Part shown: positions 39,562 to 48,852 of the stretch, one piece after another | Position numbering within the stretch: position 1 is the first letter of the stretch | How the letters are laid out: every line of letters begins with the position of its first letter | IMG/VR virus record: IMGVR_UViG_3300034061_001913 | Coordinates: 1-64,000 of that record | DNA length: 64,000 nucleotides | Direction: 5' to 3' (one strand) | Origin: a virus | The notes under the pieces: generated by a model | Database searches by the model: none | What the model saw: only the letters and a program-made list of their open reading frames with translations | Told to the model about the DNA's origin: nothing | Made by a program: the position numbers and the translations under genes

Positions 39562-42500
39562 CTATTCAATCACGTTGTCTTCCATCTCATTTAGTAGTGC
39601 CCTTTGTTCTGAGCCTTTCCAATACAGTTCACTTTGTTTTTGCTCAATCAATCTTCTTAGAGATGTTCTGTATTCAACGTCGTCAGTTTGGCTTGCTTCA
39701 ATACTCAAAGCTTTGATTGCTTTTTTAAGCTGCTTCATGCCCTTTCGTGTTTCTTGTAGATCTTCCTCAGTAGATTGTAAATAGTATTTTGGGTTATAGT
39801 GAGTAAAGGTTCTATATCTATATTCCGGATTAAGGAAGTAGTTCATAGACCCAGCTAGTTTACTTTGTTCTAGGAATAAAGCAACTATATTAGAGTGTCC
39901 TTTTAAAGCAGGGTTAATTGGAACATCTTTACGATTTGATATATAACCATCTTTGTCTCTTTGTACGTATTCGTCAAATAGGTTATAAGTTTCTTGTGTA
40001 GCAAAACTATAACCCTCTCTCAACAAATCATAACTTGCTTGGTAAGGAAGCAGTACATTCTTACTAGTGTAATATTGAACTATGTTTACTTGAGTATTCT
40101 TATCAGTAACTCTTCCGTAGTATATAGAAGCAGGACTAGCAATAGGATGCAAAGTCTCTATTTCATCTATAAGATATACTAAGTTGTAGAGTGCAAAGTA
40201 AGTACCCCAGTTATCTTCGTCATCACCTGAATCTCCTTTAACTAAACCAGACAAAGCATAAGCTATAGACATAAGAGTTACAATTGCTAGTGTGTCATAC
40301 AAAGCACCTCTTAATGCTCTTCTTGATGTACGATCTAAGGTTAACATATAAGCTTGTATACCTTCTTTTCCTTGGGTAAGAGCTTTAAGGAATTTATAAG
40401 ACTGTTCAACAACAGCTCTATAAAAACCTTCATACTCATAACCTCCGCCATAAGAAATTCTTCTACCACCAAAACGTCTAATAGCTTGATAAGCTAACCA
40501 GCTTCTCATGTAACCGGCTAGTCTACCTAGAGCAAATCTTTTGTATTCTCCTTGGTCCATTTTTGCATAAGCTCCATTTACAACTGCTGTTATGCTATGA
40601 AGCTTTTTCATAAAGTAAGACTCTTGAGCTTTTACTTCGGCCTCATCAAACTCAGGCTTTATTCTAATCTCTCCATCTACTATTTCATAGGCATCTTTTA
40701 AGGTTCTTTGCTCACCTGACGTATTCTTGATAAAAGTCTTTTTCAAAAGGGCCTCATAGATACCAATAGTAGTTTCCATTTCAAGGAAGCTTCTTCCAAA
40801 TCTAAGCAAGCTTAATGGGCTATAAGTTTTACCTTCTCTGAAAGGATTGTTAACAATGTTTCTTAGCTTTTCATTCTGTTCTTTTGGGAACACATGGAAG
40901 TAATCAAGCATCTTAACATAATCAGATTCTCTTCCTACACGAGTATCTCTATCGGCCAAGAACAAGTCTTTAATATGTAGTGCGCCTTCTCCCATTCCAG
41001 CAAATATGTCTCCAGGGGATAAATCAAATTCTCCTGCTTGGATTAGTGTATTTTGTAAGTTACTGAAAAAGTTCTTTATTGCAGAAGGTACGTTATAGTT
41101 CAAAGAAAGCTTTCTTCCTGCACTAAGTAATGGGTCAGACAATAAACCTATAAGTCTACCAAACTTACCGTCTCTAGTGTTTATTCCAAAGAGTTGTTTT
41201 TCATAAAGATTCTCAATCATCTTTATGGTGTACTGTCCTTTTTCTTCTTTGCCTATTTTCTTAGAAGACAGAATATCTTCTAGACCGAATAGAGTTGGTG
41301 CGTTCTTGAGAGCTATTTTAAACTTTTCAGCTTCGTGGTTGAACATAGTTAAAGAGGCAAATACGTTTCTGCTCTTTAAGCCTCTGTCCATATTAGAAGA
41401 GTACTTTAAATAAAGTTTTCTGTGTACTCTACTAGAAGTTTTTACACCGGCCAAGGAATCTTCGTCTTCTTCGTTAACACCTAAAACATTATCTCTAACA
41501 TCTAAGTATTTTAGCCTTAATTGTTCTACAGGATTTAAAGTCAAGCCAAAGTTTGTAAACTTATCTTTTCTTACAGAAGGAAGCACTAGTCCTCTTCTTA
41601 AAGAAGCTGGCAAGTCTTGCTGGCTTTTCTGATTCATCTCAGTCAACTCTGCTAAGATTTCTCTTTCTGCAGGGTCAAGATTGTTGTATGATTCATTTAC
41701 ATACTGAGAAGTTGGTCTTAACTGTACTCTTCCTGGAATATATTTATAATCAGGATTAACAAACAAAGGCTTACCTGTTTGAGGATTTAGTACTTGATCG
41801 TTTACCCGGTATGAATTCCAACGGAAAGAAGGAGTAGTTCTATTGATATATCTTTCGTCTACAACTTCATTAATAGAATCCCAAGGAAGTATCTCATTCC
41901 AGAAGTAAAGAGGTTCAAAACTCTTTATTTTTCTTCTAACCATAGGATCAAACTTCTCTACAGGAATGTGGTTAGCTTTAAACCAAGGAGACTTTTGGAA
42001 AGCAATCATTACCTCTCTATCAATAGCTGATGTGTTAAGCAAAGATTCTTTTTCATACAAAACGTTAAGGGCTTCTCTAGCTGCCATTTCTCCTATCTCT
42101 AATGCTGTTAAGTTAGGATACTTCTTTTGAGTAGCTAAGGTTGCTTCTTTTAGATACTTTTCATAGTTTAAAGCAAGGTCCGGATTTAACTGCATAAACT
42201 CAACAACTACTTGAGCCCTAGTTTGTGACAAGGCATTATTATAAGCAGCCGTATAATAATCAGTTGATTGTCTAGTTTGAATGTCATTTAACTGAGCAAA
42301 CAAATCTGCAAGGATAGCTTTGTCTTCTTTAGAAACTAGCTTTGCTTTTTTGAACTCATCCATGTTAGAGTTAAGCTCTTCTTGGAGTTCCTTAATTCTA
42401 GTGCTTATATCTAAAGGAATGTTAGTACCTACATAAATACCGTTTGAATCTCTATAACCTTTAAGTAGGTTAAAGATTTCGTCCCAGATTTCTGAAGCAG

Positions 42501-44490
42501 TTCTAATATTTACATTCTCTTCTTGGAAAACTTCTAAGTAATCTGCTTGAATTTCAGATATAGCATCTAAGATTTCTCTTCTTTGTTTGTACCAATCAGG
42601 GTCAATAGTACGTCTTACGTTTGCTTTAGACCAAGAATCAAGATTTTGTTTGGCTACATAAATAGCTCTTTTTGCGTCAGACAAACTGGCTGCAGTAACT
42701 TCTCCTTTATTATATAAGTCTAGTATCTCTTCGTAAGACTTTTCTGCTTTAGTTACTGCACTTGTATACTCATCTAGTTTGGCTTTCCATTGGTTTAATT
42801 TATCTTCGTCTGGTTCATAGGTAAAGAGTTGAGCAGCTCTTGTAGATTCTTTCCACTTTTTAATGTCCTCAGCTATAGCTAAATCCTCACCTACTTTAGG
42901 TGTACCATCTAAGTAAACAAAAGACTCTAATCTTTCTAGTTGAAAGCGAAGGTCTTCTATCTGTTCCATAACCATATCATTCAAAATGTCTCCACGATCT
43001 CTAGATTCTAGAAGTTTCATTTTGTCTATGATAGCTTTACGGGCTCTCTTTGCTCTCAAGGAAAGAGAACTCATTACTTGATAGTACTCTTCTGTTAATC
43101 CTCTGTCTTCGTTGGCTTCAACAAAACGAGCTAGGTTTTCTTCATCTTCAAAAGTATCCTCACCATTTAGTTTCTTTTGAGCTATAGCGTGTTCTTTTCT
43201 TACTCTTTCGTTTTTGTAACCAATCTCATCCATCTCAGACTGAAGAGCTAAGTCTTGTCTTGTTTCAAGTTCACCATTTTGATTTACAAAAACTACATCT
43301 ACTTCTCTTACGTATGTGTCAAAGAAACTATCCTCGTTTAAACTTGTTAGGAAGTTTCCTCCTTTGCTTCTATAGTGGTCTAGTGCTTTTTTAACAAGCT
43401 TAGACATTTGGTTTTGAAACTTCTGAGAGTTCTGGTCTGCAGTTGTTTGCATATCCCAGATAAAATTACCTGTAGAACCAGTTAATATGTTGGAAGACAA
43501 CTGAGCAGATTCAAGCCAATAAGACCACCAGTTTACATGGTCTTGGTTTTCAAACCCTTCCTCTTCTAAAGCCTTTTGAATATTCTCTTTAGTTGCATAT
43601 TGTTGGGCTCTCTTTTCTAATTTAACTATAGCTTGCTTTAGAGTGTCTATTACTTGCTTTCTATTTTTTGTAGGACCTTGTTCTTGTAATCTTTCAAGCC
43701 TTTGTTTTTCTGCTCTTAGCTTCTCTAGTTCTTTTTGGTTATTGGCAAGAAGCTCTTGAGACTGTTTATGTATAACAGTAGCAAGTTCTGCAGCTACTCT
43801 AGGTATTGAAAACTTTTCATTCTTTTCTTTGATAGCCTTAGCACTTGATTCTATACTAGCCATAACTTCTTTTAAGAAGTTGGTTCCAGTACTATCCATC
43901 ATAGATTTAAAGTAAGGCTTCCAATCATTTATACTGTTCTTTAGTTGGTTTGCTAGTTGAGTAGCAAAGTATGCAGTGCTTGCTCTTTCTTTTTCCGGAA
44001 TACTCTCATCAGCTAAGTGGGCCGATAAAGCTTCTTCCATTGCTTTTAAGTATGTAGAGTTTTCATACAAGTAACTAAGTATGCCTTCTGCTATCTTTTT
44101 AATATCGGTTTCAGAAGCAAGGTCCTCTAGAATTCTAGAAGAACCTATCAAAGATATATTTTTAATCTGTGCCCTCTTTGCCAAGTCTATAATAGCTGGC
44201 CAATTTGTGCTTTCTATTAAACCACGTAGTTTACTATAAAAGTCGTCAGTCTTTTCTAACTCATCTTTAAGTTGGTCTAACGAGTCTAGGTTCCTAGCAA
44301 TAGCTGGGTGGATATAAGACTGTTTTTCTAGTCTTATCTGATTGTATATACTTGTTGCTAGTTCCGGAGTTAAAGGACGATTAGTATACTTTTCATTGTA
44401 TACCTCAAGAATCTTAGAGGTAGCTACCTCATTAAAAAGAAGTACTATTGCTTTAACTTCTGGATCGTTTATATTTAGACAAGTTGCCAT
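39562..44490 (-). CDS. large virion cargo (ejection) protein
   Basis: 1642 aa, helical, C-terminal hydrophobic segment, last gene of the vRNAP cluster; single Cys at residue 4. Confidence 0.75.
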   Translation of the reverse strand: MATCLNINDPEVKAIVLLFNEVATSKILEVYNEKYTNRPLTPELATSIYNQIRLEKQSYIHPAIARNLDSLDQLKDELEKTDDFYSKLRGLIESTNWPAIIDLAKRAQIKNISLIGSSRILEDLASETDIKKIAEGILSYLYENSTYLKAMEEALSAHLADESIPEKERASTAYFATQLANQLKNSINDWKPYFKSMMDSTGTNFLKEVMASIESSAKAIKEKNEKFSIPRVAAELATVIHKQSQELLANNQKELEKLRAEKQRLERLQEQGPTKNRKQVIDTLKQAIVKLEKRAQQYATKENIQKALEEEGFENQDHVNWWSYWLESAQLSSNILTGSTGNFIWDMQTTADQNSQKFQNQMSKLVKKALDHYRSKGGNFLTSLNEDSFFDTYVREVDVVFVNQNGELETRQDLALQSEMDEIGYKNERVRKEHAIAQKKLNGEDTFEDEENLARFVEANEDRGLTEEYYQVMSSLSLRAKRARKAIIDKMKLLESRDRGDILNDMVMEQIEDLRFQLERLESFVYLDGTPKVGEDLAIAEDIKKWKESTRAAQLFTYEPDEDKLNQWKAKLDEYTSAVTKAEKSYEEILDLYNKGEVTAASLSDAKRAIYVAKQNLDSWSKANVRRTIDPDWYKQRREILDAISEIQADYLEVFQEENVNIRTASEIWDEIFNLLKGYRDSNGIYVGTNIPLDISTRIKELQEELNSNMDEFKKAKLVSKEDKAILADLFAQLNDIQTRQSTDYYTAAYNNALSQTRAQVVVEFMQLNPDLALNYEKYLKEATLATQKKYPNLTALEIGEMAAREALNVLYEKESLLNTSAIDREVMIAFQKSPWFKANHIPVEKFDPMVRRKIKSFEPLYFWNEILPWDSINEVVDERYINRTTPSFRWNSYRVNDQVLNPQTGKPLFVNPDYKYIPGRVQLRPTSQYVNESYNNLDPAEREILAELTEMNQKSQQDLPASLRRGLVLPSVRKDKFTNFGLTLNPVEQLRLKYLDVRDNVLGVNEEDEDSLAGVKTSSRVHRKLYLKYSSNMDRGLKSRNVFASLTMFNHEAEKFKIALKNAPTLFGLEDILSSKKIGKEEKGQYTIKMIENLYEKQLFGINTRDGKFGRLIGLLSDPLLSAGRKLSLNYNVPSAIKNFFSNLQNTLIQAGEFDLSPGDIFAGMGEGALHIKDLFLADRDTRVGRESDYVKMLDYFHVFPKEQNEKLRNIVNNPFREGKTYSPLSLLRFGRSFLEMETTIGIYEALLKKTFIKNTSGEQRTLKDAYEIVDGEIRIKPEFDEAEVKAQESYFMKKLHSITAVVNGAYAKMDQGEYKRFALGRLAGYMRSWLAYQAIRRFGGRRISYGGGYEYEGFYRAVVEQSYKFLKALTQGKEGIQAYMLTLDRTSRRALRGALYDTLAIVTLMSIAYALSGLVKGDSGDDEDNWGTYFALYNLVYLIDEIETLHPIASPASIYYGRVTDKNTQVNIVQYYTSKNVLLPYQASYDLLREGYSFATQETYNLFDEYVQRDKDGYISNRKDVPINPALKGHSNIVALFLEQSKLAGSMNYFLNPEYRYRTFTHYNPKYYLQSTEEDLQETRKGMKQLKKAIKALSIEASQTDDVEYRTSLRRLIEQKQSELYWKGSEQRALLNEMEDNVIE

Positions 44491-44516
44491 GTATTTTTTT
44501 GTGTTTATTTTTCGGT

Positions 44517-44786
44517 TTACAATTTACAGCTAAGGAAGTATTCTTTTGCATCTTCCTCTGGCATATTTGGGTTTTCTTCAATAAAGTCTTCTAGCTGGTC
44601 TTCTATGGAAGGTTCCATAGTTGTTTCTGTGGCGGTAGGTTGAGATTTAAGAAACTGTTTAAATCCTTCTATATCTTCTTTATTACCTAAAAAATTACCA
44701 GCAAACTCAAAAAAATGAGATTTAAAATACTCATTAAATTCTGGTTGAGAGTATTTTTTATTATTATATGTTATTGTGCAAGCCAT
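44517..44786 (-). CDS. 89 aa protein, probable displaced C-terminus of the 1146 aa protein
   Basis: [13 protein letters not shown] duplicates [13 protein letters not shown] of the upstream protein; Cys at both ends. Confidence 0.7.
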
Positions 44787-45418
44787 ATTTGATTGTTCTT
44801 TATTTTGTAAATTGTTGTAATTGAAACATTAAATTTATTAGCTAATTCTTTTACTGATTTATTAGAACTTCTAATAAAAGAAACACTATCCCAATTCAAT
44901 TTAGCAGAATTATTATTCTGCCCTTTTTTAGATTCTGATAATTCTTTAGCTCTCTTTTGAGCAGCTAATTTAAGATTTAATTTATGTTCTTCTGAAAATA
45001 TTTTTCCCTTACCAGATTCAGACATTTTGTTTTTAGTTTCTTCTGAAACAGTAAATCCATAACCTCTTACAGCTTTACCTTTTCTTTTTTCTGACATTTT
45101 TTGTTTAGTTTCATCTGATGCTTTTAAACCGTAATTACTTTCTGCAATCAATCTAATGTTAAATTTATTGCTGTACTGTTTTAAAAACCATTGTTCTAAT
45201 TTAATACAATATTCAGAAGGACATGTTGCTAATATTTTAAAATCTACATTTTCAATTCCATATTTATTTACAAAGTTTTGTAAGGGTTTATTTACATGAA
45301 AATTAGACCTTAATTTATCAAAATGTGTTTTCTTTCTTAAACAAAAATTGGTTGCAGAGCCTATATAAACCCTATTATCTATTTTAGAAAATATTCCGTA
45401 AACTCCTGAATTTAACAT
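44771..45418 (-). CDS. GIY-YIG homing endonuclease with NUMOD3-like repeats
   Basis: GVYGI...VYIGS...R...H...HVN..LQ...E...N; [23 protein letters not shown]. Confidence 0.9.
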
Positions 45419-48400
45419 ACTCTATCTATTTTACCAGTTTCTATTAATCTGTTTTCTATTTCCATAGAAGACTTGTTTATAATAAATTGTCTGAATTGTT
45501 CATAAGTTCCATATTTAGCAAATTCGCTATTTTCAAAAGCCATGTAATTTTTGAAACCTTGAATATCAGTTTTAGATAAAAGTATATGTATTTGTTCTGG
45601 TTCAAATACTATAATTTGTTCTTCGTTAATTCCAAAAGTTTCTTTTTCATCCACATCTTTTGCAATTACCGCATCATGAACCTTTATCCATTTTTGTACA
45701 TTCTGCTTATTCCAATTATTTATCCATTCTGGGTTTTCCTTAGTATTAATCTGTTCTTCCGCTACTATTTGTCCTATTTCCTTCCAATGAGTTTCTTCTT
45801 TTATTATTCTTGGATTTTTAATATTAAGCAAAATAGGATAAATAGTTTCTTTATATTTATCTTTTACACTTTTTTGATATTCTTTATTTGATGCAATTTC
45901 TTCATTTTCATCGTATTTTTCTGAAATTTCAGTGTCTATTCTGTCTTGTGTTCTAAAAGAAGAGTATCTTTCAGCAGTTTCTTTATTTCCAAACCAATAT
46001 CCTCTAATATTATTTGGAGCTTTAAAATTTTCAATATTAGGATTACTTGTACCATGATAAACAATATCTTTTACTTGACTATCAGGAAAGATAGTATCTA
46101 AATACTGAGAGTATGCTTGTAAAGCTTGTTGTTTTTGCTCTGGGGTTATTGAAGAAAAGACTTCGTTATTACCATCAAAGACTCCTACAGTTCCTTGTAT
46201 GGTATCAGTTAATGGTTGTACTTTGTCTAGATTCTTTTGTATCTCTTCGTTGCTTTCAAAAGGTTTTACTCCTTTAGCAGTTGATAGTGTGATGTGAGGG
46301 AATCTGTTTTTAGACAAAGGATTGTCTACAAGTAAAACATCTACTTTATATGTGGTAAGTCTTCCTACTATCTTAATCTCTTTGTTTTGTCCTATAGGAA
46401 GTCCGGTTAGATCACTTGGTTTAAATTCAATAGTAGAATGATGTGAGTACAGATTAGGATGAACTTGTTTGTATTTTGAAACTACATCATTTGTATCAAA
46501 GAACACAGCACTATATACAACGTTAGTTGCTTTAGGTTTAAACCCTAATGCTTCGTACACTTGATTAGCCAACTCAAAGTCAGAGTCAAATAGCTCTTCT
46601 AGTCCTGGTTTGATGATTACAGATTCTTTTTTTGTAGGAAGCTGGTAATACATTAATCGACTCTTTAAGTCAACAGGTGCTTCTATAGTGTCGCTAAACG
46701 GTTTCCACTTTTGGTAATCGTAGGAATCTTTAGGTCTGCCCATAGTAGATTGCTTTTCATAAAAAGACTCCGAGAAGTGATTGAGGGTTAATCCATACTC
46801 TTTCTCTGCTATAACAGTATACTCGCTAGAATCTCTAGGAGACAAGAAGAAGTCAAACAAGTACATCTTGGCAAGTTCTTCTTCGGTGTAGTTAGAAAGT
46901 CTTTTATTAAAAGAACCAGTATAGCTTTTAAAACGGTCTTTGAGGCTTTGGTCTTCTGACCATATTGCATTTATTGTAACGTAGTTAACACCAGCTTTGT
47001 TATTGTTGTAAGCATAAAGAAACTCGGTGTCTGGGTACTGTTGTTTAAGTTCTCTTAAAACAGGAATTTTTTGTGCTAGTTTTTCAGCGTTTATTCTTAC
47101 GTAGCCAAGGTTGCCTCTGATTTCAGAAATGTCTTTTGTTAACTCAACAAAATCTTCTATATCTAAAGAAATGCCGTGAATGTTTTGAGGAACTACATTA
47201 TCTATATCATGTAAAGCATCTATATTAGGTCTGTATGTTTCTCCTTGGTAACGGTAAGACAAGCTTCCAGTAATGATCATGCCGTGGTCTGAAAACCATT
47301 TCATGAATTTTAACGCTTTTCCACCATCTTTTTTATTCTGTTGTTTTATAGTTTCAGAATAAGAGAGCAGATTGTAGTTAGCAGTACTTCTTTGAATCCT
47401 GTCTAGCTTTTTGTAGTTGTTATTAAGAATGTCTCTAGCAATAGAATCTGCTGCAGTGTTCAAAGAAACATAAGGAACAGTGTCTAACAAGCTAAACACA
47501 TAGTCAATAAGCTCTTTTACTTTGGCCCAGAAGGTTTTTGATTTATCCATACCTTCATAGTTTCTTACTAGAGCCAAACCAATAACTTGTCCTATAGCTT
47601 CTTTTTTAATCCTAAAGTAATCAGGATTGCCTAGAGGTGTAACATACAAATTCTTATAGTCATTAACGACTCTTTCATATCCTTCCCAAGATTCTATGTT
47701 ATCAAATAGATATGTAATCAAAGGGTTCTCTGATTTTTTACCTGGGATGGCTCCTAGTAGTTCAACAAAGACGTGACCGTATTCTTCTGGCACAGTAAGA
47801 AGGTTTCGATTTTTTGCATAATAAACCGCTTTATTCAAAACGTCAAATACACCAGTGCTGTCTACACCAAACCTATCTTTTAGGCTTTCTATTTCTTCGT
47901 TTTTAATGTGGAACCTTTCAAAGTATTTGATAAGCAAGTTTTCCAACTCTTTGTTAATAGGTTCTAGAATTGCTTTATAATACTGTTCGTTAGAGTTTTT
48001 TTCAAACTGTTTTATGTAAAAGTTTAAAATTTCAGAAACCTTTAAGGTTCTAAGCTGTGGGTTATTATTTACCAACTCTAAGAACTCTTGTCTTAGTTTA
48101 GTATCAACCCCTGCTTTCTTTAAGACCTCGTTTAGATTTTTTTCGGAACCTATACCTAGTACAGATTTGTTTATTGACCGAAGTTTAGTGTTTAATTCAT
48201 CAATACTATTAAAGAGATTTCTAATTTGAAAGAATTTCATTTGGCCGGTTTCATCCATAATAGGCCCAATCTTTTGTTCAGTACCTCTAACTTCAGAACT
48301 TTCTACTAACTCTTGTGCTGGAGGAAACAGATCTAAAGCAATATCAGCAATCTCTTGACCTACCATACTCAAAGCAGTTGTTGCTTCACTAGGGGAAGCT

Positions 48401-48852
48401 GTTAACTGTTGGGACAATTCAAGTAAACCTTCCTCTACAGTAGAGGGGTCTTTTAATGCAACAGCTCCTATAGCATTGATGTTCTGTGCTAACTTAACTA
48501 CTTTATCTAGCTTTTCTTGTTTAATACTCTCTAGCTTTACCACTTCTTTTCTTCTTTTCTCTAGAGCATCAACCACAGAGTTGTTGTAAACCCAACGAGT
48601 TGTTGTGTATGTTTTACTAAAACCATATACATCAGGCCTTAAACCCTTTACCTCTGAAGTTTGAGTAGTAAGAACTTCTCCTTCTATAGATACTCCAAGC
48701 TGTTCTTTTAGCTTACGAGAAAACTCTTGGTTGAATAAACCAAAGTATTTTCTATCTAAGATAATGTTGCCATCGACTATAGGCTTTTGTCTATCATTTA
48801 CATAACTTTTTATATTGTCTGATATTACAGTATGTATGTTACATTCTTTCAT
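45412..48852 (-). CDS. polyvalent virion cargo protein (zincin-like, nucleotidyltransferase, 2H phosphoesterase, ART-like)
   Basis: EEYGH; ITGS...HDID...GRPKD..D; HHST/HITL; VYHGT...GYWF...LNIKNP...VFEPEQI. Confidence 0.75.

Follow-up and report, generated by a model that had tools for sequence, protein, structure and literature searches.

The window analysed here comprises positions 1 to 64,000 of the 74-kb viral record IMGVR_UViG_3300034061_001913 (IMG/VR), a record estimated to be ~64% complete; coordinates refer to this 64,000-nucleotide window. Its minus strand carries an array of giant open reading frames (ORFs) encoding, in order, proteins of 2637 (crossing the window edge), 2690, 1146, 215, 89 and 1642 amino acids (aa). 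The 215-aa protein is a GIY-YIG endonuclease, and its ORF overlaps the stop of the 1146-aa ORF by 7 nucleotides (ATGTTAA) and the start of the 89-aa ORF by 16 nucleotides. When 44691-45582 is deleted in silico, the two neighbours meet at an in-frame junction. An earlier note, made from the sequence alone, had described these features and proposed that a cassette carrying the endonuclease splits a single cargo gene. All the features lie on the minus strand where that note put them, its observation was correct, and the in-frame removal holds with the insertion borders as it had placed them.

The insertion turned one gene into three tightly overlapping ORFs. The new end of the 1146-aa protein is 56 aa long and consists of a codon-diverged copy of a 13-aa linker and a helical arm tipped by a cysteine (Cys). 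The linker motif, D-I-x-G-F-K, occurs in the 74-kb record at two sites in cargo genes only, the upstream (A) and downstream (B) linker copies; one further loose match, at position 2407, lies inside an unrelated plus-strand ORF. We noticed that the ATG of the endonuclease gene, within the overlap at 45412-45418, is made of the last base of the preceding codon and the TG of the upstream terminal Cys codon, and that its stop overlaps the ATG-GCT-TGC of the next ORF, with homologous sites in loci L010-L015 and L087. The overlaps suggest that translation of the three ORFs is coupled.

Looking for longer proteins related to the 89-aa one, we found P0002 (1124 aa), in which one chain covers residues 1-1090 of the 1146-aa protein and residues 33-89 of the 89-aa protein. 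Over residues 1-928 of the 1146-aa protein the identity to P0002 is ~99%; P0002 then has a different ART body, and its last 48 residues match the tail of the 89-aa protein at 100% identity. P0002 reads ...FEPEQIHM-LGTEEDIEDFKQF..., uninterrupted into the tail, and P0003 is similar. A search with the ART body of the window found P0182, which contains that body at 97% identity and continues in the same chain with ...QIHIL-GNKQDIEGFKEFV..., an uninterrupted linker of the canonical type. The identity between P0182 and the window stops exactly after QIHIL, which is the left border of the cassette. P0183 (78% identical) is likewise uninterrupted, and L005, L006 and L089 also hold uninterrupted sites. 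Because P0002/P0003 and P0182/P0183 cover both flanks unsplit, the insertion is fixed at 44691-45582 (892 bp). These four proteins supply the uninterrupted allele that the earlier note had looked to relatives for, and they bear out its genetic reading; relatives encode both pieces as one collinear protein. With P0002 as query, the viral and metagenome collections yielded distant loci only.

The 215-aa protein matches GIY-YIG (PF01541) with 32 bits against a cut-off of 22.6 and NUMOD3 with 30.5 bits against a cut-off of 20.4 (Pfam), falls in PHROG homing-endonuclease families (E 6e-26), and has a weak match to a helix-turn-helix (HTH) at its C terminus. It is encoded by an ORF of its own with its own start, outside any intron or intein that we could see. 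Its gene shows presence/absence polymorphism at the homologous site, being missing from P0002 and P0182 and found at the same site in six other contigs. The 1146-aa protein has an ART-PolyVal-like domain (PF18760) at residues 930-1088, which at 30.9 bits (E 5.3e-7) falls just under the cut-off of 31.2; in L010 a homologous stand-alone protein reaches 38.1 bits. The 89-aa protein has no recognisable domain and no enzymatic payload in Pfam, PHROGs or the ESM Atlas, and the arms and giant proteins likewise drew no annotation from Pfam at E<=10, PHROGs or the ESM Atlas. No match to the DNA of the region or to the 89-aa protein was found in an annotated phage collection, where the sole match was a distant one (30%) between the ART region and a crAss-like phage. 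The giant polyvalent protein is probably packaged in the virion and injected.

The same endonuclease is present in six other viral contigs at 74-93% amino-acid identity. The seven contigs have a block in common that begins at the EPEQI codons and closes with the N-terminal arm (N-arm), at 80-98% nucleotide identity, and both flanks of this block are unrelated; in most loci the identity reaches through the downstream linker. The host upstream of the block is always an ART domain, the ART bodies being mutually 30-38% identical, while the downstream hosts are varied and include helicase, kinase, HATPase and nuclease domains or a short tail alone. In the loci retrieved, a GIY-YIG gene sits in 16 unique cargo junctions, and in every one of them (16/16) the upstream tail follows the pattern ...K-[IL]-x-[IV]-x-x-C and the downstream head the pattern M-[AS]-C-x-x-x-Y....Y. 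Counted from the side of the arms, 16/17 unique junctions of this type contain an endonuclease, and no head of the second common type, MxxCxN[IL]..P, has one upstream. GIY-YIG genes with related Cys-tipped arms belong to at least seven lineages, between which identity does not exceed 53%, a pair of 202- and 205-aa endonucleases being counted as one lineage and exempt from this figure. The flanking peptides singled out in the earlier note thus have counterparts: six other contigs show them around this endonuclease, and related peptides surround a minimum of six more GIY-YIG lineages at different sites.

A second cassette family consists of 221-aa or 226-aa GIY-YIG genes that split the N-terminal border of the ART domain (L010 1554-2219; L012 1251-1937; L088-L093 around 1839-2504). 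It also has Cys-tipped arms, and its target peptide is duplicated and diverged, the copy after the element reading ...YLSTIFKTSQVKE.

The linker copies A and B share 8/13 residues and 21/39 bases. Uninterrupted linkers of L005, L089, L090 and L093 agree with B at 31-35 of the 39 bases and with A at 22-25. The upstream copy is non-canonical in every locus that has this endonuclease, in two different versions, whereas L087, which has like arms and a different endonuclease, keeps a near-canonical upstream copy. The 74-kb record holds no intact canonical ...EQIHIL-GSKQDIEGFK... site. These linker data fit self-immunity by recoding, though few of the cases are independent. The upstream copy is indeed recoded, as the earlier note had said, but its word "heavily" was generous for a copy that still shares 21/39 bases.

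Comparison between loci indicates that both arms are translated sequence under purifying selection. Synonymous differences (pS) amount to 0.2-0.5 and nonsynonymous differences (pN) to 0.03-0.11 in both arms, with pN/pS of 0.1-0.3 for the two and 0.08-0.19 for the N-arm. Variable sites at codon positions 1/2/3 number 9/5/19 in the C-terminal arm (C-arm), 4/2/10 in the N-arm and 44/25/95 in the endonuclease gene; for the pooled arms (13/7/29) the departure from an even spread gives a chi-square of ~15.8 (p ~4e-4). A profile of the N-arm matched 314 clusters among 1.84 billion representative proteins, and in the best 150 of these 314 the match begins at residue 1-4. The C-arm stands at the extreme C terminus, after the end of ART, in 25/25 matches. 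Neither arm is internal to a protein in the best 150 of the 314 N-arm matches or in the 25 C-arm matches, indicating that no pre-existing domain was broken up by the element. In AlphaFold models the N-arm forms a beta-hairpin (residues 4-7 and 10-13) and two helices (predicted local distance difference test score ~80), and the C-arm forms four helices followed by a disordered stretch of the last 8 aa; in the 89-aa protein the tail is predicted to form the two terminal helices of an overall fold of low confidence (predicted template modelling score, pTM, 0.30). A C-arm-like stretch, ...NKIEKDC, is internal in the 472-aa ORF of L004 (422-1840) and contains the sole non-terminal arm Cys that we saw; it runs on into a domain found at the ends of other cargo arrays (...GGKWK..KDLKG.P.H..GG...).

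The five cargo proteins of the array, 8204 aa in all, contain 8 Cys, all of them terminal and placed head to tail. In order they are C2619; C4 and C2683; C4 and C1146; C3 and C87; and C4, so that Cys pairs face each other at the four junctions (C2619/C4, C2683/C4, C1146/C3 and C87/C4), while the first protein is without an N-terminal Cys and the last without a C-terminal one. Cys1146 and Cys3, both brought by the insertion, keep this rule intact. In 132 arm-bearing representatives (57,628 aa) we counted 258 Cys, 33 of them internal, and 76 of the 132 have exactly one Cys at each end. Short proteins without payload recur, in L015 (87 aa) and in at least 12 clusters, and nearly all full-length ones keep both Cys. 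The idea that the terminal Cys is a by-product of the ATGTTAA overlap was rejected: L016 and L018 have the Cys without the overlap, and junctions free of endonuclease carry it too. Cys is entirely absent from three large ORFs (973, 961 and 621 aa) that lie upstream of the cargo chain (record 64885-73877, beyond the window, and window 39562-64000), and small ORFs elsewhere in the record have ~1% Cys.

Table 1. Features of the split cargo gene and its surroundings, in window coordinates.
Feature	Positions	Strand	Basis or remark
Host gene, 5' part, residues 1-1090 up to ...EPEQIHI	45583..48852	-	ORF; ART-PolyVal 930-1088; Cys4
Full 1146-aa ORF	45412-48852	-	ends ...GKIDRVC, then stop
Upstream (A) linker copy, 13 aa, start of inserted block	45544..45582	-	codons unlike canonical linker
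C-terminal arm, 43 aa (MAFENSEF...GKIDRVC), last residue Cys1146	45415..45543	-	stop codon 45412-45414
GIY-YIG endonuclease gene, 215 aa, NUMOD3 and C-terminal HTH (weak match)	44771..45418	-	Pfam, PHROG
N-terminal arm, 32 aa (...FAGNF), Cys3, end of inserted block	44691..44786	-	profile matches
Downstream (B) linker copy, 13 aa, canonical target-type; host gene resumes	44652..44690	-	linker alignment
Host gene, 3' part, tail of 89-aa protein, ...EYFLSCKL and stop, Cys87	44517..44651	-	match to P0002 C terminus
Full 89-aa ORF	44517-44786	-	32-aa arm, linker from residue 33, ends SCKL, then stop
Whole inserted block, 892 bp	44691..45582	-	block between unrelated flanks; joints that skip 892
Next cargo protein, 1642 aa, sole Cys = Cys4	39562..44490	-	presumed partner of Cys87 (89-aa protein)

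The explanation that we consider likely, and the best for the data as a whole, is that a composite mobile element, a free-standing GIY-YIG gene between coding arms, was copied into the boundary between ART-PolyVal and the linker of a cargo gene. According to this model, the endonuclease would cut the canonical, uninterrupted ...EQIHIL-GSKQDIEGFK... DNA of naive phages, and the break would be repaired from a cassette-bearing genome, with the short conserved linker sequences serving as homology. The codon-diverged upstream linker copy would make the carrier genome immune to the enzyme that it encodes. The arms would then dock, the unstructured ...KIDRVC tail probably pairing with the N-terminal hairpin, Cys1146 and Cys3 would form a disulfide in the virion, and the split protein would stay one link in a head-to-tail cargo chain. 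For the arms by themselves, docking plus disulfide is the most likely function, a reading we hold with as much doubt as confidence; its main rival is that they are packaging signals of the individual proteins. The observation is real and non-random, and its genetic interpretation is supported; post-translational re-linking is a plausible proposal.

In line with this model, contigs of three lake-water runs, none of them the likely source run, join 44690 directly to 45583, and contigs of two runs, one of which belongs to the three, show the join in an 8-base variant. These joints match ~30 bases per side and derive from other ART genes; they show that the empty site is common in these lakes, not that this phage has an empty allele. 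Several observations weigh against the model. The cassette is not the sole difference between the window and P0002, as the ART domain is swapped too. The endonuclease ORF of L013 is ~91% identical in DNA to that of L014, but identity between their arms drops to 55-80%, the breakpoints lying at the ends of the endonuclease ORF, and L087 (202 aa) and L013 (214 aa) have different endonucleases at the same junction type. L087 also has, at 616-620, a junction of this arm type without an endonuclease (600-640 reads ...KGLQIIC, stop, then MSCVYVFKGNEY..., with one base between stop and start), which suggests either that an endonuclease was lost or that this is a natural empty target. The L013 and L087 cases indicate that endonuclease and arms are exchangeable separately and that the unit is not always one indivisible cassette. 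The ~890-bp element proposed in the earlier note does hold the target copy, the arms and the endonuclease, but its coherence as a single unit is not general. The L013 and L087 cases and the swapped ART body of P0002 would suit an alternative, on the whole unlikely, in which the arms might be resident gene-boundary modules, GIY-YIG genes home into the stop/start junction of genes that were already separate, and the split arose by recombination at the linkers together with the ART swap. Such resident modules would leave three results poorly accounted for: an endonuclease sits in 16/17 junctions of this arm type and in none of the other, the identity of P0182 to the window ends exactly at the left border of the cassette, and the non-canonical upstream linker is found only where this endonuclease sits.

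Further points bear on the fate of the two halves. The disulfide, the docking, the packaging in the virion and the target of the endonuclease are all things that we infer. No member of the thioredoxin family was found in the ~64% complete record, nor was an Erv1/ALR thiol oxidase, although the Erv1 control matched nowhere, so that this blank is uninformative. The arms mix across loci, L015 combining a standard C-arm with a variant N-arm, and no pair-specific covariation between the arms was seen across loci. Together with the facts that polyvalent proteins are strings of autonomous domains and that the 89-aa piece lacks an enzymatic payload, these observations favour a somewhat doubtful alternative in which the halves are not re-linked, each arm serving its own piece as a capsid-targeting or ejection signal and the terminal Cys being used otherwise. 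Against it, 8 Cys for four junctions, with no outer Cys on the end proteins, fit a chain; internal Cys are almost absent from 57,628 aa; a disulfide of this kind has a precedent in phage A4 (see below); and payload-less adaptors with both Cys in at least 12 clusters are hard to explain unless both ends matter. The 89-aa ORF could also be a functionless remnant of a gene in decay, which its missing domain and poor predicted fold (pTM 0.30) would allow. We regard this as very unlikely, given that 48 aa of its tail match the unsplit allele at 100% identity, that the N-arm is under purifying selection, and that L015 has an independent 87-aa analogue alongside a dozen other short ones, nearly all full-length ones of which keep both Cys.

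Removal of the block by splicing was considered at both the RNA and the protein level. A group I intron with an endonuclease ORF, spliced from the mRNA, would account for the unsplit junction that in-frame excision recreates, and the ~264 nucleotides outside the ORF are within the range of a small intron core. This is highly improbable: Rfam gave no match at E<=1 in 43500-46500, both flanks of the ORF vary mainly at third codon positions (pN/pS 0.1-0.3), the 3' part begins with an ATG in frame with many different payloads (in the best 150 of the 314 matches), and the Cys is invariant. A core broken by a 650-nucleotide ORF could evade the Rfam model, so the codon-position evidence weighs more, and it is on these statistics that the intron was rejected. 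A fractured gene in the sense of Dassa et al., whose arms would be split-intein halves that trans-splice the pieces, would have the same order of piece, free-standing endonuclease and piece (PMC2677866) and a Cys at the junction. Its probability is close to nil, as arms of 43 and 32 aa are far under intein size, the upstream arm starts with MAFENS rather than Cys or Ser and has its Cys as the last residue, the downstream arm ends in ...AGNF followed by Leu, with no His-Asn and no +1 nucleophile, and the arms have no Pfam match at E<=10. The intein was rejected on motif polarity and size. The absence of intron core and intein motifs reported in the earlier note is borne out by the Rfam and Pfam searches.

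Genes split by free-standing endonucleases have been described in Aeromonas phage Aeh1 (nrdA by mobE), T4 (39/60 with mobA) and phage 25 (43A/43B) (PMC2988022). As here, an endonuclease gene lies inside what is a single gene in relatives, and two polypeptides result without RNA or protein splicing. The host genes there are replication enzymes whose pieces reassemble by the enzyme's own fold, whereas the gene split here encodes a virion cargo protein and the insertion brings conserved terminal peptides, which precede many unrelated payloads and come with at least seven endonuclease lineages; in addition, the insertion contains a second copy of part of the target in changed codons. The element also resembles the seg-type GIY-YIG endonucleases of T4 (PMC2988022) in its catalytic domain joined to DNA-binding modules, its free-standing ORF, the presence/absence polymorphism between relatives and the mosaic co-conversion around the gene. 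In contrast, seg genes are normally intergenic, cut hundreds of bases away and have no coding arms travelling along. Fractured genes, described in 2009 (PMC2677866), have a free-standing endonuclease between split-intein halves. They share with our locus the piece-endonuclease-piece order, the occurrence mainly in phages and the supply by the element of new termini that rejoin the halves; they differ in that the arms here lack intein blocks, have the wrong Cys polarity and are about one third of intein size, and rejoining here would be by docking and/or disulfide, with no peptide bond.

A structural precedent for the pattern of the proposed junction is found in cyanopodophage A4, where cryo-electron microscopy showed that gp27 docks into gp26 through its C-terminal helix, which is fixed by a Cys1715-Cys5 disulfide (PMC12002296). 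In both cases a Cys near the C terminus of a giant protein faces a Cys within the first ~5 residues of the adjacently encoded protein, here as read from the sequence. A4 has one such bond and no endonuclease is involved, whereas the pattern here extends over four consecutive junctions and hundreds of related proteins.

In nonribosomal peptide synthetases and polyketide synthases, an N-terminal beta-hairpin docking domain gains a strand from a C-terminal peptide, and such short portable terminal modules order consecutive polypeptides. The likeness to our arms is an analogy only, since the sequences and context are unrelated, no Cys is involved and those docking domains are not mobile.

Endonuclease-split genes without splicing and fractured genes were thus already known; new here are small, portable, non-intein, Cys-tipped arms that are reused in virion cargo genes, and literature searches found no description of such arms around endonucleases of this kind. 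Selfish endonucleases are thought to last in essential genes through removal of the intron or intein, or in rare split enzymes that reassemble themselves. The present element appears to bring its own rejoining device, reused at many sites and in hundreds of protein clusters. In its most general form the idea, which we put forward tentatively, is that the GIY-YIG endonucleases of these lake and marine phages carry a portable non-intein clasp that rejoins the halves of any split cargo protein post-translationally, by docking and then a disulfide in the virion. If true, selfish endonucleases would have, beside self-splicing introns and inteins, a third means of sparing the host gene, and the element would exploit a pre-existing head-to-tail chaining of injected proteins through terminal Cys. 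The clasp would also account for the freedom with which giant injected polyproteins can be cut and reshuffled, and would provide a very small natural tag pair (32 + 43 aa) for ordered protein coupling. A disulfide-chained ejection "train" would be testable on one short junction.

ART bodies are hypervariable, with 30-38% identity across ~40 proteins, yet they are flanked by nearly invariant linker sequences, and the ART body of the window (45583-46080) recurs at 97% identity in an otherwise unrelated 1174-aa protein. This pattern points to shuffling of ART bodies as modules at conserved linkers. The region 43800-46400 of the window, whole or in part, is found in lake-water, freshwater, sludge and wastewater metagenomes of ~20 studies (runs X1-X22). 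The summed contig depth of the conserved linker bins is several-fold above that of the rest of this region, indicating that many related ART genes are present in the same samples.

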